The translations under genes and the position numbers were made by a program. The notes below the pieces were generated by a model. That model saw only the letters and a list, made by a program, of their open reading frames with translations, did not search any database and had not been told where the DNA came from. Source: an uncultured Gammaproteobacteria bacterium (GTDB lineage: Bacteria; Patescibacteriota; Microgenomatia; 0-14-0-10-38-17). From it: a stretch of 64,000 nucleotides of DNA. Positions 14,893-39,079 of the stretch are shown in pieces. Location: positions 453,586 to 517,585 of the forward strand of contig CAYGEH010000001.1 of assembly GCA_964348895.1 (NCBI GenBank), written 5' to 3'. Within the stretch, counting starts at the first letter, position 1. Every line of letters starts with the position of its first letter.

Positions 14893-15279
14893 GGCACTAT
14901 AGGACAATAAATTATGTTTTCTAGCAGTAAATATATCAAAGTACTAATTATTTTGTCAAGGGAAAAAACATCTTTTTCTAAAAAATAGCCACAAAAGATA
15001 TTATTTGACATATTCTTTAATAAAAAGGTAAGGTTTTAAGAACTAGGTCAGTTTTTAGTGCCTAAAATTTAAATTAAAAAAAGAGAATAAAGTGATTATT
15101 TATTGATGATTTAATTAATAAGGGTTTTGGCGAGTGGTCACAATAAAAATCTTCTGGTTGACTTTAAGATTCTCTTGTGATAAAAATTAGTTTGCTTACC
15201 GAAGACAGCAGGAGCTTTTCTATTTTTAAGACTAACTTTCATTTTTTCAAAAAGGGGTCAAGAAAAGCTTAATTTCCCG

Positions 15280-15345
15280 CCGAGGTATATGTTTGTTATT
15301 GCGCTTAGTTATTAACAACACCTCGGAAAGAGGTGTTTTTTTTTT
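15280..15345 (+). promoter_or_regulatory. rplJ (L10) leader: intrinsic terminator hairpin with a competing upstream antiterminator pairing, i.e. an attenuator
   Basis: Terminator CACCUC-GGAAA-GAGGUG at 15319-15335 followed by a U10 run (15336-15345), 7 nt before the rplJ ATG. The upstream CCGAGGU (15280-15286) can pair with ACCUCGG (15320-15326), which excludes the terminator stem. Confidence 0.5.
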
Positions 15346-15351
15346 GAGACG

Positions 15352-24574: not shown

Positions 24575-27394
24575 ATGCTCTGCCCAAAAAACTTCAACAA
24601 TGTAGTTTTAAAAATAAAAAAGCTATTGTCTGGGAACAGGAGCATTTTATTGAAAATAAAACCACAAACAAAGAAAAGAAAAAGAAGCTGTCTAGAGAAC
24701 AAGGGAAGCCTTAAAAAGATATCCTTGATTTTTTCGATTAAGACCTTTAAAAAGAAAAGTTTTACTAGAAAAAAAGTTGATTGCTTTTTTTTACGTGCCC
24801 ACGAGGTCTTTGATCTACTTGGGCGACATTTTGTTATTAAACATAAAACACTAAGACATTCCTCTTGTAATCGCAGAAACAACACTGTTTATAGAAACTT
24901 AAAAAAAAGAAACAACTGGCTGTTTAGTCTTAAAGAAAAAACCCTAAAGGGTTTAAAAATATTTTTGTTGACAACAAAGAATGTTTTTAAAAAATTATTT
25001 CACCTCGCTGTCAACAAGAGTAAGTCTTTATACTATTATATAAAAGAGGGGCGCTTTCGAGAAATTACTCCAGCTTTTGTAGCACACTCGGTACGACGAC
25101 ACTTGCCACTTTTTTTAGCTGTCTTGTTTATTACGCCTGCGGCGATTTTTTTGGGAATTTTTATTTATTCTAGATTAAACCAGCCACCTGCTTATGCGAC
25201 CCCTTTTACTGGTGCAATCAAGATTTCTCGGCAGTCTACTACTCTGTCTACCGACGGTGACTGGCTTACTTCGTTGGCACATTCAGGAGATGGGGTGACT
25301 GGTGACGCCGAGTCAGGAACCTTTAATCCAATTCATCCAGGTGGAACCTCAGATGGCACAGCAGGATCGGGCTTGGCGATTGGCTATATGACGGCTGGGG
25401 CGACAACCTATGCCACTACTGAGTTTATTGGTTTTAGGCCTAGTGCCAACGGAAACTTGACTGGCATAATGCTAGTTTTAGAGAACACCCTGTCTGCTTC
25501 TCGATCGGATGTGGACATAGTGGTTGAATTATTACGTTTTCCTTCAGCCGTTTGCACCACTACTTGCTCTAACTATGTGACTGGCTCTTTAAACTCTTTT
25601 ACCTTTCCAGCAGATACAGAGGTTTTAAGAAGAACTGTCTGGCAGTTTAATCAAGGTTTGTCGGGGGAAAACATGGCACCAGGAAACTTTGGTAGAGCAA
25701 CTTTTGATTTCCGTTTTGATTCGCCGGTAGCAGTAAACACTAGTAGTCATTATGGAATTAGGATTATTAACATGGGGTCAGGAGCACCAGTGTTTGGTGC
25801 GTGGGCAGCCAATGCCCCTTTTGCCAATTTTCCTATAATTAATGGTGCTTTTCGTACAATTGGGGTAAAAAGTATTGACAACGTCAATGCACCAACAGTT
25901 AACATGCCATTGGCTTTGTCTGGTAATAGCGTGATTATTTTAGGAACTTCACCTACACAAAGCTCTGGTATGGTAGCCGGAAATTCACTTGCTGGCGTGG
26001 GCTTGCCGACAATTAGAAGAACGGAGAACGAACATTGGACAGCAACCTATTCTTTAACCAATAACAACTGGACAATTGGGGGTTCAGTTTCTGGAGTTCA
26101 AAACAGAAGATTAACTACAGCGACGACTGGTGGTACAGGGCCGTCTTGGGTTAATGATGGAGTGGCAATAACACCACTGGCTGTTGACTCGGCCGCCTCT
26201 AATCGACTCTGTGTTACTTCAAGCGCTGGTTTTGCTGTTAATCAAACCATTGATCTTTGGGATTCGGACACAGCCACGCTGGGATACACTATTGCCTCAG
26301 TTAATGCTTCAGATGGTAGTTGTCCAGGAAATGGGCCATCAATTATTACCACCGCTGCGACCGTTGTTGGTTACACTGTTAATAAAAATGCCACTGTGGC
26401 CCAGGCGGTTTGGAAACAAAGAATTATCCAGGGGGCGGAAACAGCCTTTTCTCAAAACATGCCAACAACTAGCAAAATCTGTGTAGTTGACGCCTCGCAG
26501 TTTTCTGTTCGGCAGGGGGCAGCAGCTAATTTAGCTATTTGGGACAATAATTCGGTTATTTTGGCAACCAACGCCATTACTGCCATTACCGTTGATGATA
26601 TAGCCTGTGTTAATCCAACTCACGATGGCTTAACCTTAGCCTCTACGATTACCGCCGGAACCTATACAATTGACCAAAACGCTAGAGTAGCAGAAATTTC
26701 TACAACGCTTTCTAATATCGGAACGCCAGCTAATAATGCAACTATGCGCTGGACAACCTTTAATCATACCCAAAACCCAACCGCTTCTCCTCATCTTGCC
26801 AGAACCAGCTCGGTGATGATTGGTTTAGCAAAAAACTTGGCACCGGCCCAATCGGGCGTCAATTACCCCTTTCTTTCTAACAATCATATATTTTTTACAG
26901 CCTACGGCGACGCCAATACCCTGGCTCCAGCCGACGGCGACATTGTTGTTGTGGGAAATGGCAGGCCCGATCCAGACAGTGCTGATTCTCCGAATTTAAT
27001 AGATGATTTAAATTGGTCAGGGAAACAGGAACATGTGATTACTATTGATCGACATTGGAGTGCACCCCTGGTTTATACTGGTTCGTATGGCAGTGCAGTT
27101 TTAGATGGTGCCGGCGCTAGGGCTGATTTTTCCGCTTATTCGCAAAACGCAGGCTGGATTTCGGCGGTGATTGCTCCGAGTTCGCAGTTGCTTTTTGGCA
27201 ATGCCCTAACACTCATTATCGGATTACCATTCCCGGAAAAATTGTTATTGACTCTGATGCCTCTTTGGCTTTTGGGAAACAAGGAGCGGCTATTCCCGAC
27301 TCTTCATTTCAAAACATTTATTTTGACAACGTCAGCCCGGCGGTTTCCACCACGCTTACTACCAACTCTGACACTGGTACGGTGCTTACCGTAA
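24575..27394 (+). CDS. Giant surface protein, N-terminal ORF (frame A). The real reading leaves this frame at ~27.21 kb; sequence after that is out-of-frame read-through
   Basis: Only one in-frame ATG (24575), followed by a ~170-aa K/R-rich stretch over AT-rich DNA, so the true start is uncertain. A TM anchor 'LPLFLAVLFITPAAIFLGIFIY' lies at about 25.10-25.17 kb. T/S/G/A/N-rich ectodomain with repeated 'IWDNNSV...GYTIDQNA' modules that recur in the next ORF. Confidence 0.6.
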   Translation: MLCPKNFNNVVLKIKKLLSGNRSILLKIKPQTKKRKRSCLENKGSLKKISLIFSIKTFKKKSFTRKKVDCFFLRAHEVFDLLGRHFVIKHKTLRHSSCNRRNNTVYRNLKKRNNWLFSLKEKTLKGLKIFLLTTKNVFKKLFHLAVNKSKSLYYYIKEGRFREITPAFVAHSVRRHLPLFLAVLFITPAAIFLGIFIYSRLNQPPAYATPFTGAIKISRQSTTLSTDGDWLTSLAHSGDGVTGDAESGTFNPIHPGGTSDGTAGSGLAIGYMTAGATTYATTEFIGFRPSANGNLTGIMLVLENTLSASRSDVDIVVELLRFPSAVCTTTCSNYVTGSLNSFTFPADTEVLRRTVWQFNQGLSGENMAPGNFGRATFDFRFDSPVAVNTSSHYGIRIINMGSGAPVFGAWAANAPFANFPIINGAFRTIGVKSIDNVNAPTVNMPLALSGNSVIILGTSPTQSSGMVAGNSLAGVGLPTIRRTENEHWTATYSLTNNNWTIGGSVSGVQNRRLTTATTGGTGPSWVNDGVAITPLAVDSAASNRLCVTSSAGFAVNQTIDLWDSDTATLGYTIASVNASDGSCPGNGPSIITTAATVVGYTVNKNATVAQAVWKQRIIQGAETAFSQNMPTTSKICVVDASQFSVRQGAAANLAIWDNNSVILATNAITAITVDDIACVNPTHDGLTLASTITAGTYTIDQNARVAEISTTLSNIGTPANNATMRWTTFNHTQNPTASPHLARTSSVMIGLAKNLAPAQSGVNYPFLSNNHIFFTAYGDANTLAPADGDIVVVGNGRPDPDSADSPNLIDDLNWSGKQEHVITIDRHWSAPLVYTGSYGSAVLDGAGARADFSAYSQNAGWISAVIAPSSQLLFGNALTLIIGLPFPEKLLLTLMPLWLLGNKERLFPTLHFKTFILTTSARRFPPRLLPTLTLVRCLP
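27127..27394 (+). other. -1 frameshift junction between the two ORFs of the giant gene
   Basis: Frame B (codons at position 1 mod 3) opens after a TGA at 27124-27126. Frame A (2 mod 3) runs to a TAA at 27392-27394. Protein-like composition switches from A ('...APSSQLLFGNALT') to B ('HYRITIPGKIVIDSDASLAFGKQGAAIPDSS...') near 27205-27215. Local landmarks are a T5 run at 27192-27196 and, in frame A, the heptamer G_GGA_AAC at 27274-27280, whose -1 slip enters frame B. Confidence 0.6.
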
Positions 27395-30300
27395 CTTCCA
27401 CCTCTGGTTTTAATGTCGGCGATACCATTGTTATTCGCGATAACAACTCGGTAGCGATAACTAGATTGGTTGCTGCGATTGAAAATGCTACCCAGATTAG
27501 GGTAACAGCCGCGTTGGTTGCTGGCTATACGATAGATCAGAGTGCTTTTGTTGCCAAGGGCCCAACCACAGAATTACCTACTGGTGCTGATCGTCGAGCC
27601 GGAGTTTATACTATGACCGGCTTAATTGGAACAACACAAACCAACTTTCGGGTTGGTCGAGTAAGCTTGTATGGTCAGGGTTCAGATAGTTTTAGGACAA
27701 TGAAAAGTAATTTAGCAGTTGATGTTGAGGGTGATATTAATACTGGTTTCTTGGGAAACAATCTAACTGACTCTGGTAACACTTGGGTTGATGTTAAAGA
27801 CAATGTGGTGGGGAATTGGCAACCCCTAGATAGCATTGCTGTAGGTGGTGCCACTAATCAACTAGCGGACAACGAATTTTCTTCGATGAGAATGGGGGGA
27901 ACAGATGATGCTAACCAAATGCCAGTTTGGACTGGTCTTTTAACTGCTGGAGGCAGAAACGCCCTGCCAACCCCCAACATGGAGGTGGCAGAAATTGGAA
28001 CAATTCCCCTAACCGATATTTATAATAGTAATTTTAATGCTGGTTCGTCACTTTTTTCTTCTAATTACAACAATTCTAGTGTCTGGACGATTTTTGGCGA
28101 TGGTGCTAATAACGAAGTTAGCGATATGGTTTATTTTGGTGATCGGGGAAACAACATGTTTTATTCTTTAGAATTTAATCTTGGTATAACCATGGTGGCC
28201 AACGCTTCTTATGTTTGGGAATTTTGGAACGGAAGCGCTTGGCAAGGATTTACTCCTCGAGATGCTTATAGATATGAACCAAGAACGGACTACTGCATGC
28301 CACTTTCTGCTAATACAATTAGAAATTCTTTTACTCTGACTGTTCCCGAAGGTGGCACAAATTTTGGCTTAGATCAAATTGTGGCTATTAGCGACAATGA
28401 TTCGCCGAGAATTTTTCGAAGATTGGGAACTAGCGCTCCTTCTTCCACCACTTTGACTTTTTCTGAACCCCTGCCGGCTGGTTATGACACTGCTCAAGGT
28501 GCTCGAGTTTGTCGTTTAAGTGGCGGTCGCTGGATCGCCTTTGATCCAGCGAATATTTTTACAGCCAACACTGGTCGAAGAATTTTGAGTTGGACGCCAT
28601 CAAATTTGGGTAACGCGCCAGCTAGAACAACAGTTAATGGTGTGAACGCTTTTTGGGTAAGAGCGAGAATATCTACCCTTACTTCTTGGGAAGTCAATCC
28701 GGCTAATCAAACCACTCCAGTTAGCATGAGTGGATTAGAAAGAATTTCTTCTGGAGCTATTACGATGAGCTCTGGAGTACAAGAAGCTAAAATTACCGAA
28801 ATCACCCCTGGTTCGCTTTATAATCCCAACGAACAGTGGACCCTGGAATATGGCAATTCACCGGGATGGATAGAAACTATTCGTGGGGCTGCGGTTGGAC
28901 CACTTTCAGCCCCCTACCTTCATCGTGTTTCTGGAGGAGTTCTTAATTTTAGTCCTACCAACGTTCAAAACTGGTCAGTTCACAATAGCAATGTCCCTTT
29001 GGGCACAACAGACTATACAATGAGTGCTTTGGTTAGAATGGATATGCCAGCAGACGCCACTAGTCGTCGCTTAGGGCTTTTAATGCGTCAAAGCCTAGAC
29101 GGTGATGGCTATGCTGCTTTAATTACAAAAACTGCTTCTGTTAACACCGTTCAGTGGTGGACAACGTTAGCTGGTGTTCCCACCGCCATTGGTTCAGCAA
29201 CTTCTAAAACCTTTGATGTTGACACTTGGTATTGTTTAAAGGCAGAGGTTATCGGAACAACATTAAGAGCTAAATTTTGGGCAACAACGGATTGTGCTGT
29301 TGGAGAGCCAGGACCCTGGGATGTAACCGTTATCAATACTACTTATACTAATGGTCGAATTGGCCTTTATACTGGTTCGGCGACAGCCTCTCAGGGGGCA
29401 AGGGCAATGTTTGATCAGGTTTCTGTTATTGGCGGGGCTAATTTTTCTGATAACTTTAGTGATACTCAAACTTGGAGGGTAGAGGGTTCTATCCAGGGTT
29501 TAATTGGTGCAGCCACTCCGGGGACACCGTTTGCCAGCAATTTTATTAATTTTACTATAAAACATAGGGGCGGCTGGAATGGAGTGGTCAGCCCAGAAAT
29601 TGGCGATAAGATTTATTTAACTTCAACCGCTATTCGTAGTTATAGAGGACTAGATCCTTCGGTGCCGATTGTCACCAATAACAATAACACTAAATATGAG
29701 GTTTGGGATTTTGAATGGACTGGTTCGGCTTATGCGGTTACAGGGAGTGCTTCTGGCGCAGCAGGGACAGCTATCCCAGGCTTGACTTACACTGCTCCCA
29801 ACAATCAAATTTCTTTAAGAATAAACCCAGGAGCCCCCACGGCAACAAGGTTTGGCAACAGAATGCTTTTATTACAAGACAACCTTTTGCGCAGCAATGG
29901 CTCTTGGACTGGAGTAAATGGGATAGGAAGTGCGGCCTTGTTTTACCCTAGTTATACTTTAACAGGCAGTCCGGTTGCTACCCGCTACAACATTGAGGGA
30001 CAGAGTGGTACAGCCAATGCTCGACAACGAGGCACGATTGATTTTTGGTTTAAAACTAACTACGAGGGTAGCCCTTCTTCTGTAACTAATTCAGAAGGAA
30101 TGTATTTAATTGATTATGCTAATCAGGGTAACACTGACCGCCTGTTTGTTAGACACACCTCCGAAGGCTTTTTAGAAGCATCAATTTGGGCAGGTGCCAC
30201 TCAGGGACCGATTTTACGACAAAGCTTTTCTGCTGAGGCTGGTCGCTGGTATCATTTTCGCTTAGTGTGGTCCGAAGACGCCACTCCAACAATCCACAGA

Positions 30301-33300
30301 AGAGCTTGGCTTGATGGAACACCCTTTTCTATAAACCAAGGAAGCTCTCTTGCGGCGCGTGGTATTAATGCAGGGTTAATAAGAATAGGCAATAACTGGA
30401 CTTATAATGCGGCTTTTGATGGCGCCATTGACGAATTGGCTATTTTTGATGAAGATCTTGACACTTCTGGCGCTTGTAACTGGGGATCGTTTACTGTTCC
30501 TGCTTCGCCCTGGCTTGGGGCTGAAACCATTGGCTGTGCTGCCGACAGAAGCGGAATTAATATTTTTCGGGCTAGTTTTGATTCTGCCATGAACCCGCAG
30601 GAAGGGTTTATTTGGGCCGACTATGCATATGGGAACCCAGCTGTGATTTTTACCAATGGTGCAGATACAGGAAACGAGAGATTTAGAATAATTACTTATC
30701 CCGAAAGAACCCGTGTTTGGATAGATAATACTGGTGAAAAGTATACGCCTTCAGCCAGAATTAAATATGGTTCTGGTCATCTTGAAAACAATGCCCTGAC
30801 AACATTAGCTGGCTGGTCTCATAATTTTACTTTCCACCACAAGGCGGCCCGTGATTCAGAAACTAATCCGACTCATTCGCCAGTTTTAAATTTGAGGCGT
30901 AGTATTCATATTTGGTCTGAGGAAAACTTTACTTATACTGGGGCTACGACTGGTGCGCCGATCAATTCTGGTTTAGGTTTTGGTTTAACCGCAGTCGGTC
31001 TTTCTGGTTTGGCCAACATGAACATTAGCCATTTGTCGATGGAGAATCAGTTTAGTAATTTTTCCATTATGACGAACCCCTTTACTTCGATCAGACCATT
31101 TCCCAGCCAAGTTATATCTAAATCAGTTTTTTACAATTACTTTGATCGGGCTTACACGGTTTCTGCCAAAACCCAGGGTTCTAATTATGTTGGTGCCTAT
31201 TTTGTGACGACTAACTTTGCTGCAGCCAACATTGGTACAGGTTATAATGCTTCCGCCTCGCAAAACGTTGGCATTGATGGGAGTATTTTTATGGGTCACC
31301 GAAACAGTTTTGTCACTGTGCCCCCAGCAGCGGCAAATGGTGCGGCAGCGTTTTTCTCTGGCCGTCTTTACACTATTCGTAATAGCGAATTTCATAATAA
31401 TGGTATTTCTGGTTCAGGCACCACAGGGGCACTGAACTTCAGTGCTGGTGTAGCGAAATTGACCATTGAAAATAACATTTTTTCTATCAATACCAATGGA
31501 GTTCGGCTTTATGGTAATTCTTTTGTTGATCTTGCCAATAATGTCTTTGACGGTCATGTTTCTGACGATGTAATCACTGTTGCTGGTGGATATGGTTCTG
31601 GTATCCGTTCCGCCCAATCTTTCTCCTCGGTGTTTGTTAGAGACACTGGGAGTGTTTTGGGTCGAGGATTATGGAATGAGGCTGATATTAATTTACCTCC
31701 TAATACCGCCACTTTTGAGGCAGAATCAATGTTGCAGTTTATTGGTGAGGGCACATCTTTGTTTAGTCCGATTTTGTTTGGAACAGTGGATTATTTGAAT
31801 ATGGGACGAGTGCCAGAAGAATATTTTCACACGACAATTCCAGGAACAGAGATTCGGCTTGGTTCTGGCAAAGATATTGTTAATTTGACGACTTTCGGCA
31901 ACATGCGCACCACTGGCGGAGGCTTATCGGACACAACTGTTCGCACAAGTGGTGGTTATGCTTGGCGACTAGACCCTCGAAGTTCTGATGTTGCCCTAGA
32001 TTATACCGCTAAAGTAGTAGGCGTAGCTGGAAAGCCCCTGGCTGTTACTGGCTATTTACGAATTAACGAGGACTATGGATCTTCTGGTTTACCAACAGTA
32101 ACGCTTTCTGGATTGGGAATGGCAGGGCCAAATTTGACTTGGACGGCCCAAGCTTCTTCTAATGTTTGGCAGCAATTTGTGGTTTCTGGTACGCCAACAG
32201 AATCAGCCCTAGCCGAAGTGAAAATAAGCGTTAGTCTCGAGGGTGTGGTGGTGGCCGATTCTGGTACAAGTCAAATTATTGCTAATCCGATAGGTAATTA
32301 TTTGCCAGCCTTAGTTGAAGATGTTAATAAATCTTGGAGACCAAACCAGTGGGTTGGATTTTTAATGAGAGACAGCAACGGTAAGATTTTTGAAATTGTT
32401 AGAAACACCGGTCAGCTTTTGTATGTGAAGGGGATTGTAGCACCACACCTTTTAAGTACTACTTTTACTGCGGCAACTCCGGGAGACTATATTATTTTTC
32501 GTCAACCAATGGTTTATTTAGACGATGTTTCAGTTTTGTCTGGAACGGTTGACACAGGCACCCTAGACTTACATATTGCTGGTCAACCGGTTTCACCTTG
32601 GCTTGCGACTGGTCTGACTGCCGAATCAGTTTGGAGTGCTCAATATGGTGTTTTTGCTGATATTACTGGCTCTTTTGGTCAACTTATGCAAGATGCCCTG
32701 GTTGCTCGGTATGCCAATGTGCTTGATCCCTCGCCAACCACAATTTCTTTTAACACCAACTTAACGGCCTCTGCTGATGATTTTTATAATGAAGGAGTAA
32801 TTATATTCACTGAAGGTCAAAACAGGGGAGTGGTAAGGCGCATTTCTGCTTACGGTGGTGCCAGTAAAACCATTACCATTGCTCCGCCTCTTCCTTTTGC
32901 TCCGAAAAATGGGGACAGATTTGCCGTTTTGGCCGCAACTAGCTTTTCGGCCGGTGGTACTGGTGGGGCCAGTGCGGCGGAAATTTGGAACTATGCTGTT
33001 AGATCTCTAACGGACGCCACCCTAAACTCTGGCAGTTTAGCAACGAGTTTTGACATAGCAGCGATTCAATCTAGTCTAACTACAATTTTGTCCCAAACCA
33101 ATAACATTGTGGCAATAAAAACAAAAACAGACACGATTAATTGGGCCGACATAATCGGACTTATAACTACCACAGGTCAAATTAGGGCCAAGACCGACAC
33201 AATAAATTGGAGCGACATTTCCGCTGTTAAAACCAGAACTGACACAATAAACTGGAACGATGTTACTGGTATCAAATTAAACACAGACACAATTGTTTGG

Positions 33301-36300
33301 GGAGATATTACAGCAATCAGAAATAATGTTGCCACTCTAATTAGCGAAATAGGTGTTGGCAATATTGCAGCAATCAGAACCAAAGCCGAGACCATTTCTT
33401 GGGGAGATATTACTGGGCTAGTAACGACATCAGGGCAAATTAAAGAGAAAACTGACACCATTAATTGGGCAAATGTGGTAGCAATAAAAACAAAAACAGA
33501 CACGATCGCTTGGGATGATGTTACTGGTATTAAGGTTAAGACAGACACGATCGCTTGGGGCGATATTGGTGTTTTACAATCTTCAATAAATTCTTTAAAT
33601 AATATTTCTGCCACTGACATTTGGGCTTATGCGACAAGAACCATAACTGGCGAAGTGGTGCTAACCGCGGATTCAAGACGAGCTATTTGGGACACAGCCT
33701 GTGCCATTCTGAATACCTCTGGTAGTGTTGGAAAACAAGTTTGTGACAATCTTGACACAACTATTTCTTCTCGCTCAACTTTAACCGCGGCCCAAGTTTG
33801 GGCTGAGGCAACCAGAACTATCACTGCCCTAGAAAGCCCAGCCCTAGCTGCAATTGCTAACAATGTTTGGAGTAACGCCACAAGAGCTCTGACTTATTAT
33901 GGCAACGATATAACAGCCCAGCAGGTTTGGAGTGTTTTGACTTCTTCTTTAACAACGATTGACTCTATTGGTAAGCTTTTGGTAACCAATGTTGACGAGA
34001 CGATCTCTTCTCGTTCCAGCCAGGAAAGCTTGGATGTTTTATCAGAAAATGTTGCAACCACCTCTGCTTTAATTGATGCTCCAATATCTTCTCGAGCCGC
34101 TCAGTCGAGCTTGGACGACCATGAAGCGGCAGAGTCAGCTTTTAGAACTCAAACGACCAATACCTTAGGATCAATGACCATTAATATTGCCGCTATCTTG
34201 ACCCAGCTTTCAAATATTGAAACTAAAATTAATACAATTCAATCAACTTTAGCCGTTATGGACGGCAAGTTAAACATTATTGACGCCAATGTAACTAGCG
34301 TCAAAACAACGATTGAAGACACTAATATTAAGGTTACGGCGATGCAAACGGTAACCAACAATATTTTAGCTAAGTGGGGAAGCTATAACGCAACAACGAT
34401 TCTTGGCTATGTTGATGCTTTAGAGGCCAACTTGGGGGATCCCAATGACCCAACGTCTTCGGCCACGGTTTTTGGCAAACTTAATTATCTTAAACAAAGT
34501 GGTGCTGGTGGCGGCGCTGGTGGCGGTGGCGGCGGCATGATCGATTTAGTTTATGCTCAAGCCCAGTCAACCCACACTAAACTTTTAGAGGTTCAAACAG
34601 AGCTTGGATTCAATGGTAAATCCACAAACGCCTATGATGAAATGATTGCTGTTAAGGGTTATGTTAATGAGATTGAACTATCCTTGTCGACACTAGATTT
34701 AAATACTTCCGCAATTACCGCTTCTGTTACTAATGTTTCTAACGACCTAAGAGCTGTTACTAATAAAATTGGCAAGGTTAATGTTGACTCTCTCGCCCCT
34801 CTTTTTGAGGTGCAAAGAATGGACATTGACTATTTGAAAACTAAAATGGTTGAACTAAAAACAGTTGCGGACATTAATCGTCAGCTTTTGGAAAAAACAG
34901 TTAATCAGCCGATTGTTAAGGTGATTATGGAATGGGGGTCGGTAATTATTAAGTTTGTCATCGTTAACCCTTCGGACTCAGTTACCCAAACAATTCCGTT
35001 TAAGGCCTTTTTACCCAAAGAAGTCAGACAAGAGTACATTATAGACCTTGGTGGGTTGATGCTCAACTATGATGCGACAACAGAACAGTATTATGTAACA
35101 GCAGAAATTACTCTAGAAAAGGGCGAATCAGTTATTAGAAGTGTGAAAATTAAAGACATTTGGGTTATTTCTGAAGATGAAATTGCCTCTTTGCGTCAAC
35201 AGGCGGAAGATCTATATGAAGGATTAAAAAAGACCCCCTATAGCGCTCAGGCCTTGATTTTAAGAACTGATATTAACACCAGATTGGACAGAGTCGTTAG
35301 AAAACAGAAAGATGGCAGATCTACTCCACAGGAGCATATTTTGGCTTATCGAGAAAACGCTGAAGATATGAAAGCAATTAATGAAAACATTAAGGGTCTT
35401 AAGGATTTGGTTTTAACCTCTGGGGTTGGGAGTAACTTTTTGGCCTCAATTGGTGGTATTCAAACATTTGCGACATGGGGTATTGTTTTAGTTTTAATTT
35501 TTGGTATGGGAACTTTAGGAATGTTTTATTATCAATTGTGGCGAAGAAAGGTAGTTACTGTGAGTAGCGAAACTAGAAAAAAAACAAAAAAAATAGAAAT
35601 ATCAACACCATCGCCATTTATGCTTCCTGGATTTGACTTAGCTTGGTTGAAAAAAATTCTTTTCGGTTGGTTAATTTTAATAAGAGATATTTTTGCCAAT
35701 TTGATTCGACTGATCAAGCTCTTTAATTTTCAAACAAAATCAACGACCACCAAAGCAAAAATAACACAGAAAACACTAATTGTTTTTTTAATGATGGGGG
35801 GAACTGTGGTTGCAATTATCAGCGGAATAGTGGTAACGCGAAACTTTTTGAAAAAAAATCAAGACCAGAACACAGAGACAAGGGTGACGACTTCGATGCC
35901 TAATTCAACCTTAGTTGCCACCAGAGAGGAAAGAGTCGAAGTCCTAGTTGCGGAAATGATCGAAAGGGCAACTGAAAAAAAAGAAACCCACGAAAGGATT
36001 GAGGAGCTGACAAAAGAGTCAGAAGAGGAAGGAGTTTTGAGGGCTACTTTTGAATATCAACAATTACTGGTAATTAAGCAAACACCGAACGGTTGGGTTG
36101 ATGTTCGACAAGAACCCTCTTTGTCAGCAGAAATAATTACCAAGGTTTATCCTGGGGAAAGTTATCCTTTCTCTGAAACAGAAGGAGAATGGTATAAGAT
36201 ACTACTCAAAGACTTGACTGAGGGATGGATTCCGGCCAAGTTTGTAAAACCGGAAGAGAAAATAACAAATGCTGTTGGCGATATCTTTGTGGAAATTATT

Positions 36301-36486
36301 CCTCCGGAAGGAGGCGGAGTTAATATTCGCCAGTCGGCTGATAAGGAAAGCAAAATTATTAAGACTGTTTATGTCAAGAACAAATATCTCAAGCTGGGAG
36401 AAGAGGGTGATTGGATAAAAATTGAGCTATTAGGTGGAAAGGCAGGCTTTGTTTTTAAAGAATTTATTCAAACGATAAGCGAATAA
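27265..36486 (+). CDS. Giant surface protein, main ORF (frame B, 3,073 aa from an in-frame TTG; the frame is open from 27127). Contains lectin-like jelly-roll domains, a parallel beta-helix, tandem repeats, coiled-coil-like sequence, poly-Gly, TM helices and two SH3b domains
   Basis: DUF1080/ConA-like region at about 28.9-29.4 kb ('YTMSALVRMD...GYAALI...DTWYCLKAEVIGTTLRAKFW...GRIGLYTG'). LamG-like region at about 29.97-30.45 kb ('GTIDFWFKT...RWYHFRLVW...FDGAIDELAIFDEDL'). Parallel beta-helix at about 31.37-31.68 kb ('LTIENNIFSINTNGVRLYGNSFVDLANNVFDG'). A 15-aa repeat array at 33.11-33.58 kb, poly-Gly at 34498-34536, TM helices at ~35.45 kb and ~35.8 kb, and two SH3b-like domains at 36.08-36.47 kb. 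Confidence 0.7.
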   Translation: MAFGKQGAAIPDSSFQNIYFDNVSPAVSTTLTTNSDTGTVLTVTSTSGFNVGDTIVIRDNNSVAITRLVAAIENATQIRVTAALVAGYTIDQSAFVAKGPTTELPTGADRRAGVYTMTGLIGTTQTNFRVGRVSLYGQGSDSFRTMKSNLAVDVEGDINTGFLGNNLTDSGNTWVDVKDNVVGNWQPLDSIAVGGATNQLADNEFSSMRMGGTDDANQMPVWTGLLTAGGRNALPTPNMEVAEIGTIPLTDIYNSNFNAGSSLFSSNYNNSSVWTIFGDGANNEVSDMVYFGDRGNNMFYSLEFNLGITMVANASYVWEFWNGSAWQGFTPRDAYRYEPRTDYCMPLSANTIRNSFTLTVPEGGTNFGLDQIVAISDNDSPRIFRRLGTSAPSSTTLTFSEPLPAGYDTAQGARVCRLSGGRWIAFDPANIFTANTGRRILSWTPSNLGNAPARTTVNGVNAFWVRARISTLTSWEVNPANQTTPVSMSGLERISSGAITMSSGVQEAKITEITPGSLYNPNEQWTLEYGNSPGWIETIRGAAVGPLSAPYLHRVSGGVLNFSPTNVQNWSVHNSNVPLGTTDYTMSALVRMDMPADATSRRLGLLMRQSLDGDGYAALITKTASVNTVQWWTTLAGVPTAIGSATSKTFDVDTWYCLKAEVIGTTLRAKFWATTDCAVGEPGPWDVTVINTTYTNGRIGLYTGSATASQGARAMFDQVSVIGGANFSDNFSDTQTWRVEGSIQGLIGAATPGTPFASNFINFTIKHRGGWNGVVSPEIGDKIYLTSTAIRSYRGLDPSVPIVTNNNNTKYEVWDFEWTGSAYAVTGSASGAAGTAIPGLTYTAPNNQISLRINPGAPTATRFGNRMLLLQDNLLRSNGSWTGVNGIGSAALFYPSYTLTGSPVATRYNIEGQSGTANARQRGTIDFWFKTNYEGSPSSVTNSEGMYLIDYANQGNTDRLFVRHTSEGFLEASIWAGATQGPILRQSFSAEAGRWYHFRLVWSEDATPTIHRRAWLDGTPFSINQGSSLAARGINAGLIRIGNNWTYNAAFDGAIDELAIFDEDLDTSGACNWGSFTVPASPWLGAETIGCAADRSGINIFRASFDSAMNPQEGFIWADYAYGNPAVIFTNGADTGNERFRIITYPERTRVWIDNTGEKYTPSARIKYGSGHLENNALTTLAGWSHNFTFHHKAARDSETNPTHSPVLNLRRSIHIWSEENFTYTGATTGAPINSGLGFGLTAVGLSGLANMNISHLSMENQFSNFSIMTNPFTSIRPFPSQVISKSVFYNYFDRAYTVSAKTQGSNYVGAYFVTTNFAAANIGTGYNASASQNVGIDGSIFMGHRNSFVTVPPAAANGAAAFFSGRLYTIRNSEFHNNGISGSGTTGALNFSAGVAKLTIENNIFSINTNGVRLYGNSFVDLANNVFDGHVSDDVITVAGGYGSGIRSAQSFSSVFVRDTGSVLGRGLWNEADINLPPNTATFEAESMLQFIGEGTSLFSPILFGTVDYLNMGRVPEEYFHTTIPGTEIRLGSGKDIVNLTTFGNMRTTGGGLSDTTVRTSGGYAWRLDPRSSDVALDYTAKVVGVAGKPLAVTGYLRINEDYGSSGLPTVTLSGLGMAGPNLTWTAQASSNVWQQFVVSGTPTESALAEVKISVSLEGVVVADSGTSQIIANPIGNYLPALVEDVNKSWRPNQWVGFLMRDSNGKIFEIVRNTGQLLYVKGIVAPHLLSTTFTAATPGDYIIFRQPMVYLDDVSVLSGTVDTGTLDLHIAGQPVSPWLATGLTAESVWSAQYGVFADITGSFGQLMQDALVARYANVLDPSPTTISFNTNLTASADDFYNEGVIIFTEGQNRGVVRRISAYGGASKTITIAPPLPFAPKNGDRFAVLAATSFSAGGTGGASAAEIWNYAVRSLTDATLNSGSLATSFDIAAIQSSLTTILSQTNNIVAIKTKTDTINWADIIGLITTTGQIRAKTDTINWSDISAVKTRTDTINWNDVTGIKLNTDTIVWGDITAIRNNVATLISEIGVGNIAAIRTKAETISWGDITGLVTTSGQIKEKTDTINWANVVAIKTKTDTIAWDDVTGIKVKTDTIAWGDIGVLQSSINSLNNISATDIWAYATRTITGEVVLTADSRRAIWDTACAILNTSGSVGKQVCDNLDTTISSRSTLTAAQVWAEATRTITALESPALAAIANNVWSNATRALTYYGNDITAQQVWSVLTSSLTTIDSIGKLLVTNVDETISSRSSQESLDVLSENVATTSALIDAPISSRAAQSSLDDHEAAESAFRTQTTNTLGSMTINIAAILTQLSNIETKINTIQSTLAVMDGKLNIIDANVTSVKTTIEDTNIKVTAMQTVTNNILAKWGSYNATTILGYVDALEANLGDPNDPTSSATVFGKLNYLKQSGAGGGAGGGGGGMIDLVYAQAQSTHTKLLEVQTELGFNGKSTNAYDEMIAVKGYVNEIELSLSTLDLNTSAITASVTNVSNDLRAVTNKIGKVNVDSLAPLFEVQRMDIDYLKTKMVELKTVADINRQLLEKTVNQPIVKVIMEWGSVIIKFVIVNPSDSVTQTIPFKAFLPKEVRQEYIIDLGGLMLNYDATTEQYYVTAEITLEKGESVIRSVKIKDIWVISEDEIASLRQQAEDLYEGLKKTPYSAQALILRTDINTRLDRVVRKQKDGRSTPQEHILAYRENAEDMKAINENIKGLKDLVLTSGVGSNFLASIGGIQTFATWGIVLVLIFGMGTLGMFYYQLWRRKVVTVSSETRKKTKKIEISTPSPFMLPGFDLAWLKKILFGWLILIRDIFANLIRLIKLFNFQTKSTTTKAKITQKTLIVFLMMGGTVVAIISGIVVTRNFLKKNQDQNTETRVTTSMPNSTLVATREERVEVLVAEMIERATEKKETHERIEELTKESEEEGVLRATFEYQQLLVIKQTPNGWVDVRQEPSLSAEIITKVYPGESYPFSETEGEWYKILLKDLTEGWIPAKFVKPEEKITNAVGDIFVEIIPPEGGGVNIRQSADKESKIIKTVYVKNKYLKLGEEGDWIKIELLGGKAGFVFKEFIQTISE
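33112..33580 (+). repeat. In-frame tandem repeat array (about 9 copies of a ~45-nt / 15-aa unit 'KTDTINWxDVTGIKx', with occasional longer spacers)
   Basis: 'gcaataaaaacaaaaacagacacgat' recurs at 33112 and 33481, and 'acagacacgatcgcttgggg' at 33497 and 33541. Protein: KTDTINWADI.../KTDTINWSDISAVKT/RTDTINWNDVTGIKL/NTDTIVWGDITAIR.../KTDTINWANVVAIKT/KTDTIAWDDVTGIKV/KTDTIAWGDIGVL. Confidence 0.8.
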
Positions 36487-36980
36487 ACAACCTGGTTATA
36501 TAAGAAATGAACAAACATCGCCAAAAAGGTTGCTGGAAAGACTAACTGCTGGTTTTGTCGACTAGGCAGAAAAATAATTAATCCTGTTAAGGCATGTAGG
36601 GTTGTAGTCAAAATAAATCTTTGCCAAAAACTGTAAAGAATGCCGTCAGCAATGAAGTTTGTCAGATAAAACATGTTCTCAGAAAAAGCAAAGAGAAACA
36701 ACATCATTAATGTTATCTTTAATTGATTTTTTCTTGAGGAAAACTTGAGAATTTGTAAAATAAGGATTGCTTTAACAATTTCTTCAATTATAAAAAAATG
36801 AGAAACAACTCTTCCCAGAGGAATAAGAACAAGGGGTAGGACTAGAGCTATAAGGCAAACTAAAAAGAGAACTGACGATTCATGGTTTTCTTTCTCCATG
36901 AATTTAATATACCAAAAATAAACAAATAATTTTTCAAAATAAGCGTTTTGTTCGTCTTTGTTTTTTGTAATTATACTCAT
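36468..36980 (-). CDS. CPBP/PrsW-superfamily intramembrane metalloprotease-like membrane protein (CAAX-protease/Abi-like)
   Basis: 170 aa, 4-5 TM, with a motif-1-like 'IIEEIVKAIL', 'TTLHALTG' and 'FVHFLYNQ' (HxxxN). Convergent with the giant gene, overlapping its end by 19 nt. Confidence 0.4.
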   Translation of the reverse strand: MSIITKNKDEQNAYFEKLFVYFWYIKFMEKENHESSVLFLVCLIALVLPLVLIPLGRVVSHFFIIEEIVKAILILQILKFSSRKNQLKITLMMLFLFAFSENMFYLTNFIADGILYSFWQRFILTTTLHALTGLIIFLPSRQNQQLVFPATFLAMFVHFLYNQVVYSLIV

Positions 36981-37575: not shown

Positions 37576-38256
37576 TTACGGATTTTGTTGCTGATAAAGA
37601 GCCCAGTCTTGGCTGTTGACAATGCCATCTTTGTTTAGGTCAAACTCAGGATTAGAGGTACCAAATTTTTCCACGAAATCTCCAATGGTTTTCCTTGGTT
37701 TTTCTGATAAAACATTTTGAGGGGGGGGAGAGACAATTGGAGTTGGTGTAATTCTTAGCGGCTCTTCTTGCTCTTCCCGTTCTTCTTGAATCAAGTCTGG
37801 ACCTAGAGTTGTTTGCTGGGGGGGTTGTTGGTTTTGGGTAAGTGGTGTTGTTTGGCTTGTTTCAGCCAGGGATTTGGTTGTAAAAGAATAGGGAGCCCCA
37901 TTATTATCGTAGACTTGATCACCGACTCGAATTCTAAAGTAATAAATTGTTTCTGGAAGAAGAGGAGATAAGGTTAGGCTGTGATTGGTGGTTTGATTGT
38001 TTCCGGTGTTGCGTAGCAGAAAACTTCCAGGAGTAGTTCCATATTCAATTTGGCCAATAACCGGAGTAGTTGTTTGCCAGACAACGGTAACGGAATTGGC
38101 GGTAATATTGGTGGTTCTAACCCCTTGGGGTTGTTGTTGACCGGCAGCTTGACCAAACAAAGCTCTGACTCTATCTAGTCCTAAAACCAAACCAGCAATT
38201 AAGGCTAGGGCCAAGACTGAAGAAACAGCAACAATAACAATCTTTTTGTGTTTCAC
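37576..38256 (-). CDS. Membrane-anchored fibronectin-type-III-like domain protein with a Pro/Gln-rich linker and a C-terminal dockerin-like calcium-binding repeat
   Basis: N-terminal TM helix, FN3-like 'TNITANSVTVVWQTTTP...YYFRIRV', then a P/Q/T-rich linker. The C-terminal 'DLNKDGIVNSQDWALY' matches the dockerin loop consensus DxNxDGxVNxxD. GTG start. Confidence 0.5.
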   Translation of the reverse strand: MKHKKIVIVAVSSVLALALIAGLVLGLDRVRALFGQAAGQQQPQGVRTTNITANSVTVVWQTTTPVIGQIEYGTTPGSFLLRNTGNNQTTNHSLTLSPLLPETIYYFRIRVGDQVYDNNGAPYSFTTKSLAETSQTTPLTQNQQPPQQTTLGPDLIQEEREEQEEPLRITPTPIVSPPPQNVLSEKPRKTIGDFVEKFGTSNPEFDLNKDGIVNSQDWALYQQQNP

Positions 38257-38270
38257 ACCGAGAGGTTATT

Positions 38271-38948
38271 TTAATTAAACTTAAAAATGAAAGTTAACCC
38301 AAGAAACATTAAAATCATGCCTCCGCCGAATATCAAGGTGGTTGGTTCTAAGAAGCCAGTTTTGGGAAGATCCTCACCGGTTAAATTTGCTGCAGGAGTA
38401 GCTGCTTGTCCGCCAATAACATAAGAAGCGTTGATATTGCTAGGACAAACGATAATGTCAGTATTGTTGGTGGAGTTTATATTTGAGTCGTTAGTGCCAC
38501 CAGGCTGACAAAGAAAGCCTACTGAGGCCGTTCCTGGTGCCCTTCCCCTAAAGGTAATAGTTGCCAAGGTTCCTGTTCCTGTTTTGGGGCTACCAGTATC
38601 AGCTACACCATAAATTTCTATTTTTCCTGCGGTTGTTGTTATCGTGGTGATGGTAGGAAAAAATGTTCCCTCGGTGACGTTAACCACCTCTAATAAGGTT
38701 GAATTATATTGGACAATAGCGTCAACCCCATTTGTAGACTGACCGCCAGTGTTAACAGAAACAGTAACATTGAAAATGAAACCAGCATCAACCTCTCTAA
38801 CGGTAGGATTTAAGCTCAGGTGAGGAGAAGCTGTTTGGGCCAGAAGAGAAGAGAACGGAGCCAAGAGAAAAAACAAAACAAGTAACAAAGAGGTTACTAC
38901 ATTATATTGATGACCAATAGGAGGCTGTTTTTGTACCATTAAATTCAT
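38271..38948 (-). CDS. Secreted cohesin-domain protein with an LPXTG sortase cell-wall anchor
   Basis: Signal peptide, then a cohesin-like beta-sandwich pattern ('FIFNVTVSVNTGGQSTNGVDAIVQYNSTLLEVVNV...GKIEIYGV...TGTLATITFRG'). The C-terminal 'LPKTG' is followed by a hydrophobic segment and a basic tail. Confidence 0.55.
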   Translation of the reverse strand: MNLMVQKQPPIGHQYNVVTSLLLVLFFLLAPFSSLLAQTASPHLSLNPTVREVDAGFIFNVTVSVNTGGQSTNGVDAIVQYNSTLLEVVNVTEGTFFPTITTITTTAGKIEIYGVADTGSPKTGTGTLATITFRGRAPGTASVGFLCQPGGTNDSNINSTNNTDIIVCPSNINASYVIGGQAATPAANLTGEDLPKTGFLEPTTLIFGGGMILMFLGLTFIFKFN

Positions 38949-39079
38949 AATAACTTAAAATTTCCAAGTCGTCAAGAGAGGATTTTTAGATAAATATTTG
39001 GGGAAAATTTGAGTGTTTATTATTTTAAATTCGATGTTAATTAAACGATGATTGATTTAAAAGCCACCAAGAGGGGCTG

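Follow-up and report, generated by a model that had tools for sequence, protein, structure and literature searches.

A conserved two-gene unit of Microgenomates bacteria, with a single cohesin and a half dockerin, predicted to act as a non-cellulosomal docking pair

What might two adjacent surface-protein genes do together, when one encodes a cohesin and the other ends in a reduced dockerin? The question is raised by a 64-kb stretch of contig CAYGEH010000001.1 (hereafter the window), which comes from a tiny-genome, Shapirobacteria-like bacterium of the Microgenomates, within the Candidate Phyla Radiation (CPR). The two open reading frames (ORFs) are termed here ORF-A and ORF-B. On balance they probably form a two-gene, non-cellulosomal cohesin–dockerin docking unit, with the two products predicted to bind 1:1 as plug and socket. 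A sequence-only reading of the stretch had proposed a cohesin protein carrying a cell-wall sorting signal, encoded beside a membrane-anchored protein with an FN3-like domain, a Pro/Gln-rich stalk and a dockerin-type loop. Both ORFs lie on the minus strand where that reading drew them (225 and 226 residues, 14 nucleotides apart). Its cohesin, its FN3-like domain and stalk, and its treatment of the two genes as a unit are all borne out by the evidence below. ORF-A and its parts are the following.

38271..38948, minus strand: ORF-A, 225 residues; single-cohesin protein, predicted to be secreted, whose C-terminus bears an LPKTG sorting signal (ORF list, PF00963)
38835..38948, minus strand: N-terminal leader or signal peptide of ORF-A, about residues 1–38, hydrophobic core VVTSLLLVLFFLLAPF and a conserved ..AQT (sequence, model)
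38409..38828, minus strand: cohesin beta-sandwich of ORF-A, about residues 41–180 (10 strands in the AlphaFold2 model; Foldseek)
38355..38369, minus strand: LPKTG motif, residues 194–198 (motif scan, alignment)
38274..38354, minus strand: hydrophobic C-terminal segment and minimal charged tail, FLEPTTLIFGGGMILMFLGLTFIFKFN (helix 203–223 in the model)
38947..38975, minus strand: promoter-like site TTGACG-17-TATTAT, 10/12 match (consensus match only)

The cohesin assignment of ORF-A rests on Pfam and on fold, because a sequence-profile search of the PDB with the cohesin family of ORF-A retrieved no cohesins at all, only chance matches at E >0.05. Kinship to the solved cohesins is therefore remote at the sequence level. 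In Pfam, the Cohesin family (PF00963) matches residues 52–134 at 34.5 bits, above its gathering threshold (GA) of 24.1 (E 2.8e-8), and 22 of 23 members of the ORF-A family match it as well (best E 8.1e-13). The AlphaFold2 model has a mean predicted local distance difference test (pLDDT) score of 71.6, with the beta-sandwich core mostly at 73–94. When this model is compared with the PDB by Foldseek, ranks 1–34 are all cohesins (E 4e-8 to 4e-5), led by 6kgf_A (E 4.3e-8). The target template-modelling (TM) scores of these 34 matches are 0.25–0.72, or 0.43–0.72 without the three chains of 3l8q, a cohesin-dyad of about 340 residues. Cohesins of types I, II and III are among the 34, as are 2xdh (rank 6), the non-cellulosomal cohesin of A. 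fulgidus, and 2zf9, the cohesin of sortase-anchored ScaE. A weak match to a domain of a C. perfringens pilus protein appears at rank 39. Model and fold matches together are consistent with the nine-stranded, flattened beta-sandwich (jelly-roll) that defines cohesins. NCBIfam returned nothing useful for either ORF.

The family is large. At E<=1e-3 its profile retrieves 7,264 cluster representatives, of which 1,773 also pass E<=1e-10; most of the 150 matches listed are about 210–260 residues long and align over nearly their full length. Database annotation already names relatives of ORF-A 'cohesin domain-containing'. Some family members are built differently. P0153 (2276 residues) combines nine cohesins of the ORF-A type with FN3 domains and, at its C-terminus, a canonical double dockerin, and P0155 and P0156, likewise scaffoldin-like, carry several such cohesins and a dockerin-like end.

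At its N-terminus ORF-A carries a leader that forms a helix at residues 15–29 of the model and ends in a nearly invariant A37/Q38; it is probably cleaved. Translation may in fact begin at the second ATG (38939), because the promoter-like site reaches the first ATG and aligned homologues begin at the position of M4, the fourth codon. The most conserved part of the protein is a loop bounded by Cys147 and Cys168 (DSNIN...D; residues 147–168, 38445-38510, minus strand), in which C147, T152, D154, S155, N156, N158, D164 and C168 are invariant. The loop is modelled at pLDDT <50 and could be a metal- or ligand-binding insertion.

A short linker joins the cohesin to the LPKTG motif, which is followed by a hydrophobic stretch of 24 residues. 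P195 and T197 are invariant, and an LPXTG-like motif with a hydrophobic tail is found in all 76 orthologues compared (LPQTG 26, LPETG 11, LPKTG, LPQSG and LPRTG 9 each). A motif scan finds no second C-terminal signal of this kind in the window. The sorting signal described by the sequence-only reading thus stands as to motif and hydrophobic segment; its basic tail is weaker than that reading implied, a single Lys three residues from the end (...IFKFN). A Lys or Arg lies within the last six residues in 51/76 orthologues. The Pfam family PF00746 matches 4/23 relatives of ORF-A at E<=1, and two of these reach its GA (20.0 and 20.3 against 20).

The partner gene and the spacer between the two comprise the following.

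38257..38270, minus strand: spacer of 14 nucleotides between ORF-A and ORF-B, which lie on the same strand (coordinates)
37576..38256, minus strand: ORF-B, 226 residues, GTG start; membrane helix, FN3 domain, disordered stalk and single-loop dockerin-like module (ORF list, Pfam, alignment, AlphaFold2)
38176..38241, minus strand: N-terminal hydrophobic helix of ORF-B, residues 6–27 (sequence; AlphaFold2 helix 2–39)
37876..38133, minus strand: FN3 or purple-acid-phosphatase-N-like domain, residues 42–127 (Pfam, alignment, Foldseek)
37699..37875, minus strand: Pro/Gln/Thr/Glu-rich disordered linker, residues 128–186 (pLDDT <50 over most of 134–184)
37579..37698, minus strand: helix-loop-helix module or 'half dockerin', residues 187–226 (AlphaFold2, PDB profile search, hhalign)
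37606..37641, minus strand: Ca-binding loop DLNKDGIVNSQD, residues 206–217 (alignment, motif scan, PDB profile)

The C-terminal module of ORF-B is the part proposed to dock. In the AlphaFold2 model of the protein (mean pLDDT 80), helices 191–197 and 215–224 of the module exceed pLDDT 90. Between them the canonical calcium positions 1, 3, 5, 9 and 12 are filled by D206, N208, D210, N214 and D217; throughout the family D206, G211, N214 and D217 do not vary. Motif scan and alignment agree with the sequence-only reading that a single dockerin-type loop, and so one repeat, is present. Translating the window in all six frames yields the loop pattern a single time, whereas the expectation from residue shuffles is 0.012. 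Of the first dockerin repeat there remains a helix without a loop, DFVEKFG; the second repeat is intact.

The claim that this module is a dockerin held in part. ORF-B itself scores 13.2 bits with Dockerin_1 (PF00404), below the GA of 22.9 (E 0.11, profile positions 35–52 of 57), so that of the two Pfam families proposed for the pair only Cohesin is matched above threshold. At E<=1, Dockerin_1 matches 13/24 family members (best 2.6e-6), and the two-loop orthologue P0147 reaches 25.3 bits, above GA, in two stretches. Searched against the PDB, the whole-family profile of ORF-B finds FN3 and dockerin chains only, and the best sequence matches among the dockerins are C. thermocellum Xyn10B (1ohz_B) and C. 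acetobutylicum Doc0917 (6kg9). A profile of the 43-position single-loop module alone reaches 12 dockerin chains (E 7.3e-7 to 2.5e-3) ahead of any EF-hand protein; two serine-protease chains (8x39/8x3a) are among the same matches. In hhalign the single-loop module aligns with repeat 2 of the two-loop orthologues, and with repeat 2 only, at a probability of 97.9%. Foldseek with the whole ORF-B model returned FN3 only and is uninformative on so small a module. The dockerin nature of the loop follows from the family profile, which finds solved dockerins, and from the two-loop orthologues, which pass the Pfam threshold. By sequence comparison, the C-terminus of ORF-B is a dockerin in which the first helix survives and the first calcium loop is lost. 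Because ORF-B falls below the PF00404 threshold and lacks two repeats, the module is described here as a dockerin-derived half module, not as a member of that family.

Across species the module occurs with two, one or no calcium loops, in roughly equal numbers, and a two-helix hairpin is conserved throughout. In the two-loop form each loop is bracketed by a Cys pair. The one-loop form has one Cys pair or, in the clade of the window, Tyr/Tyr at the same two positions (Lys/Tyr in the window itself). The zero-loop form has four Cys. Aligned with the one-loop form it shows an exact 11-residue deletion of the loop, but the alignment is weak (hhalign probability 17.6%), and its profile finds nothing in the PDB. 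Across loci L010-L033, module positions 6 and 38 (the region of residues 192 and 224) switch jointly from the bracketing Cys pair to Tyr/Tyr in the Shapirobacteria clade. Since both change as a pair, the two positions perhaps touch. Dockerin helices make cohesin contacts. A passage in PMC4728124, citing Karpol 2009, reports that an N-terminally truncated dockerin largely keeps cohesin binding until residues of helix 1 are reached.

The N-terminal helix of ORF-B has a hydrophobic core of 22 residues within the modelled helix 2–39 and is followed by a conserved motif that includes the invariant A37. It may be a long signal peptide or may serve as a signal anchor. The next domain, whose strands span residues 44–126 of the model, matches Pur_ac_phosph_N at 35.4 bits (GA 30) and fn3 at 24.6 bits, just below its GA of 25; FN3 domains dominate the Foldseek top 50. 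Some 30-odd FN3 positions are invariant among 24 family sequences, with conserved motifs EYGTTP, YYFR and D..G.P.SF.T. Conservation this strong suggests that the FN3 domain has its own ligand. A truncated purple acid phosphatase was considered for ORF-B and rejected: Pfam finds the FN3-like N-domain alone, without the metallophosphatase domain. The linker that follows has about 55 disordered residues and is conserved in neither length nor sequence.

The two genes are kept together. The 14-nucleotide spacer indicates operon-like coupling. Synteny was examined in 80 loci, one genome per species, from Shapiro-, Roizman-, Woesebacteria and other Microgenomates, and the FN3 gene is clearly present in 79. 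In 76 of these the cohesin-LPXTG gene lies immediately upstream on the same strand, and a contig end truncates two of the other three loci. The intergenic gap is -20 to +31 nucleotides in 70 loci, with a 4-nucleotide overlap in 30/76. The genes flanking the pair differ among lineages, so the pair itself is the conserved unit. The closest relatives of both proteins come from metagenome bins of Candidatus Shapirobacteria, Microgenomates and Patescibacteria. Many metagenome-assembled genome records with the Patescibacteria-type pair (L012, L017-L023 and others) are titled 'uncultured Gammaproteobacteria', and L028 is titled 'Candidatus Methanoperedens sp.'; such bins look mislabelled or contaminated. 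In more distant relatives a larger operon lies upstream of the pair (L004 3-3917, L006 4163-9259, L030 331-2088, L018, L020, L023). It encodes Cys-rich proteins that terminate in dockerin-like segments of two repeats, together with additional cohesin-like proteins anchored in the membrane. At the N-terminus these proteins have in common a helix and, after it, a (T/V)R(K/R)GA-like motif, which may be a processing signal particular to the lineage.

Because the pair stays side by side in nearly all related species, ORF-A and ORF-B are probably a docking device for retaining a surface protein. The mechanism proposed is as follows. ORF-A would be exported, and the C-terminal LPKTG signal would anchor its single cohesin to the envelope, either by covalent linkage to peptidoglycan through a sortase encoded elsewhere or with the C-terminal helix retaining it. 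ORF-B, co-expressed from the same operon, would expose the conserved FN3 domain and the flexible stalk of about 55 residues. Its calcium-stabilised C-terminal helix-loop-helix would then plug into the cohesin of ORF-A, one to one. Cleavage of the ORF-B N-terminal helix would leave an FN3 protein displayed on the wall; with the helix retained, the complex would tie the membrane to the wall.

Known systems offer partial parallels. ScaE of Ruminococcus flavefaciens, with the X-dockerin clients ScaB and CttA, shares with ORF-A a single cohesin, a short linker and a sortase signal of the LPXTG type. It anchors to the wall a surface or adhesion protein that bears a dockerin and is non-catalytic, as is proposed for ORF-A. 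However, ScaE belongs to a large cellulosome and its X-dockerin clients have two calcium loops, whereas ORF-B has one loop and no X module, the pair comes without enzymes and the window without a multi-cohesin scaffoldin. With type I dockerins (PF00404; 1ohz_B, 6kg9) ORF-B shares the loop D-x-N-x-D-G-x-V-N-x-x-D followed by a helix, but those have two repeats and a dual binding mode, and ORF-B has the second repeat and a loop-less first helix. Peer et al. reportedly surveyed non-cellulosomal cohesin and dockerin modules in bacteria and archaea in 2009. Such modules (A. fulgidus 2xdh; anaerobic methanotrophic (ANME) archaea, PMC9012536) are like the present pair in having no cellulolytic role and single cohesins without scaffoldins; unlike the pair, the surveys predate or do not cover CPR bacteria. 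In Cellulosilyticum lentocellum, the adjacent single-cohesin and single-dockerin genes ClcC and ClcD, arranged as ORF-A and ORF-B are, encode products that form a heterodimer (PMC13487519). Those proteins are cellulase-related and enhance cellulose hydrolysis (PMC13487519), whereas ORF-B has FN3 only and a half-sized dockerin and ORF-A has a sortase-type anchor. A search of the literature on cohesins and dockerins in CPR, Patescibacteria and Microgenomates found no description of the pair. The fixed two-gene unit across Microgenomates, with its LPXTG anchor and its series of two-, one- and zero-loop modules, thus appears to be new.

The surroundings of the pair in the window bear on the suggested likeness to a cellulosome and on the suggested tie to a giant neighbouring protein. 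The features concerned are these.

24575-36486, plus strand: block with an ORF of 3073 residues that has Laminin_G_3, two SH3_3 and a weak Phage_BR0599 match (Pfam)
36468-36980, minus strand: small PrsW-family intramembrane protease-like protein, 31.5 bits against a GA of 23.5 (Pfam; EExxK, FxxxE and HxxxN motifs)
15181-15350, plus strand: Rfam RF00557 match at 63 bits, the ribosomal protein L10 leader, upstream of the L10/L12 genes

The pair is set among ordinary housekeeping genes. Upstream of it and divergent from it lie mreB, mreC, mreD and PBP2. A functional tie to these genes was considered and rejected, as the neighbourhood is not conserved in relatives. Downstream are the gene for ribosomal protein L33 and tRNA-Trp, one of six tRNA genes in the window, and beyond them the PrsW-like protease and the 3073-residue protein. 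The PrsW-like ORF converges on the giant ORF and overlaps its end by 19 nucleotides. The giant ORF is preceded, with a 130-nucleotide overlap, by an ORF of 939 residues without a Pfam match. Neither protein contains a cohesin or dockerin module. The block at 24575-36486 has a GC content of 0.43–0.46, against 0.36–0.39 around it, so it may be an insertion of distinct composition, possibly acquired. In relatives the pair is kept in the absence of the giant protein, so that the tie proposed by the sequence-only reading is not supported and the proximity is incidental. The window has no cohesin besides ORF-A and no multi-cohesin scaffoldin; no enzyme such as a glycoside hydrolase and no carbohydrate-binding module (CBM) with a dockerin was found in it, the single dockerin-type loop being that of ORF-B, with FN3 only. 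With one cohesin, no enzyme and no CBM, the pair is non-cellulosomal and not a cellulosome; of the earlier term 'cellulosome-like', the analogy of docking principle is what survives.

Several observations weigh against the docking unit as proposed. On the ORF-B side, the protein's own Dockerin_1 score is below threshold, with half of the model covered, and its one calcium loop falls short of the two tandem repeats, of about 22 residues each, that define a dockerin. About a quarter to a third of ORF-B orthologues have no calcium loop, so the chemistry of that loop is not what is conserved. Homology of the zero-loop module is weakly supported and draws mainly on position and synteny. On the ORF-A side, 25/76 orthologues lack a basic residue in the tail, and PF00746 does not match ORF-A in Pfam at E<=1. 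A sortase, which the sequence-only reading would have sought elsewhere in the genome, was found neither in the window nor within about 10 kb of the 80 related loci (about 1.2 Mb of flanks). The search used the TLxTC motif, relaxed motif scans and phmmer with S. aureus SrtA as an approximate query, over the window and 89 loci. According to a published survey, a sortase family is almost universal among Microgenomates (PMC6744442), and a sortase has been reported from one closed Microgenomates genome (PMC7143001). Finally, the extra dockerin-bearing proteins in the same operon of some relatives could be clients of the cohesin.

This last point leads to the main rival explanation, in which ORF-A and ORF-B are co-expressed envelope proteins and not partners. 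The wall-anchored cohesin would then receive dockerin proteins encoded elsewhere in the genome, and the hairpin of ORF-B would have another ligand or serve only to stabilise the protein. Candidate clients do exist: the larger operon of the six relatives named above adds two-repeat dockerin-like and cohesin-like membrane proteins, and multi-cohesin proteins of the same cohesin type, such as P0153 with its 9 cohesins, carry canonical double dockerins. The dispensability of the calcium loop in many orthologues points the same way. No homologues of the extra operon proteins were found in the 64-kb window, however, which holds exactly one cohesin and one dockerin-type loop, and over 76 loci the FN3 gene is the only invariant partner of the cohesin gene and is often translationally coupled to it. 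We regard this explanation as rather unlikely.

LPXTG signals are also found on sortase-assembled pilins, and ORF-A might accordingly be read as a pilin-like or fibre subunit, either sortase-polymerised or part of a CPR-specific pilus, with ORF-B as an accessory or base protein. The recently described Pam pilus of CPR bacteria gives this reading a model, having Ig-like pilins of nine-strand beta-sandwich type and an FN3-containing membrane anchor, with homologues reported in Microgenomatia (10.64898/2026.03.03.709456); the weak fold match of ORF-A to the C. perfringens pilus domain at rank 39 agrees with it. The Pam pilins are nevertheless two-domain proteins of 38.7 and 55.3 kDa, in which a beta-sandwich, a linking strand and a truncated Ig domain assemble by donor-strand exchange, and no LPXTG is mentioned for them (10.64898/2026.03.03.709456). 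By that description they are set apart from ORF-A, a single domain of 14 kDa whose Pfam match and top 34 fold matches are all to cohesins. No sortase or chaperone genes lie nearby, and a pilus role is improbable. Least probable of all, and already disfavoured, is a fortuitous resemblance, with ORF-A a generic Ig-like surface protein and the DxNxDG motif of ORF-B a product of chance without docking. The E-value of 0.11 for ORF-B with Dockerin_1 and the failure of the cohesin-family sequence profile to retrieve a cohesin from the PDB would fit such a reading, as would the fact that Dx[DN]xDG loops are found in many calcium-binding folds that are unrelated (PMC3123361). Against it, the dockerin-loop motif is about 80-fold scarcer in shuffles than observed in the window, the module profile reaches 12 dockerin chains before EF-hand proteins, two-loop orthologues lie above the Pfam threshold, and the ORF-A cohesin is above GA and the best match by fold.

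A bolder form of the docking-unit proposal is put forward tentatively, as possible but doubtful. The pair might be a core envelope module of Microgenomatia in which the dockerin has been progressively minimised, from two disulfide-stapled calcium loops to one and then to a loop-free, four-Cys hairpin, with the same cohesin partner kept throughout. The hairpin would then represent a new minimal class of cohesin ligand, and an ORF-B that retains its N-terminal helix would be a non-covalent membrane-to-wall tether, not a display device. A dockerin-domain envelope protein is reported to be essential in a cultivated Saccharibacterium (PMC10633639); by analogy, the importance of the minimised pair to the cell might be comparable.

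ORF-A and ORF-B are in any case a small, testable and very widely conserved two-protein unit. CPR bacteria, or Patescibacteria, are thought to live attached to other cells, yet a mechanism can be assigned to few of their surface proteins. If the two proteins do bind, they would offer a way into the question of how proteins are attached to the wall in these bacteria, and cohesin–dockerin docking would extend to a whole class of non-cellulolytic, ultra-small bacteria. The forms with two, one and no calcium loops would then show, as a series found in nature, to what extent a dockerin can be reduced and still be kept beside its cohesin, which would be of interest to users of cohesin–dockerin pairs as tools for protein assembly.

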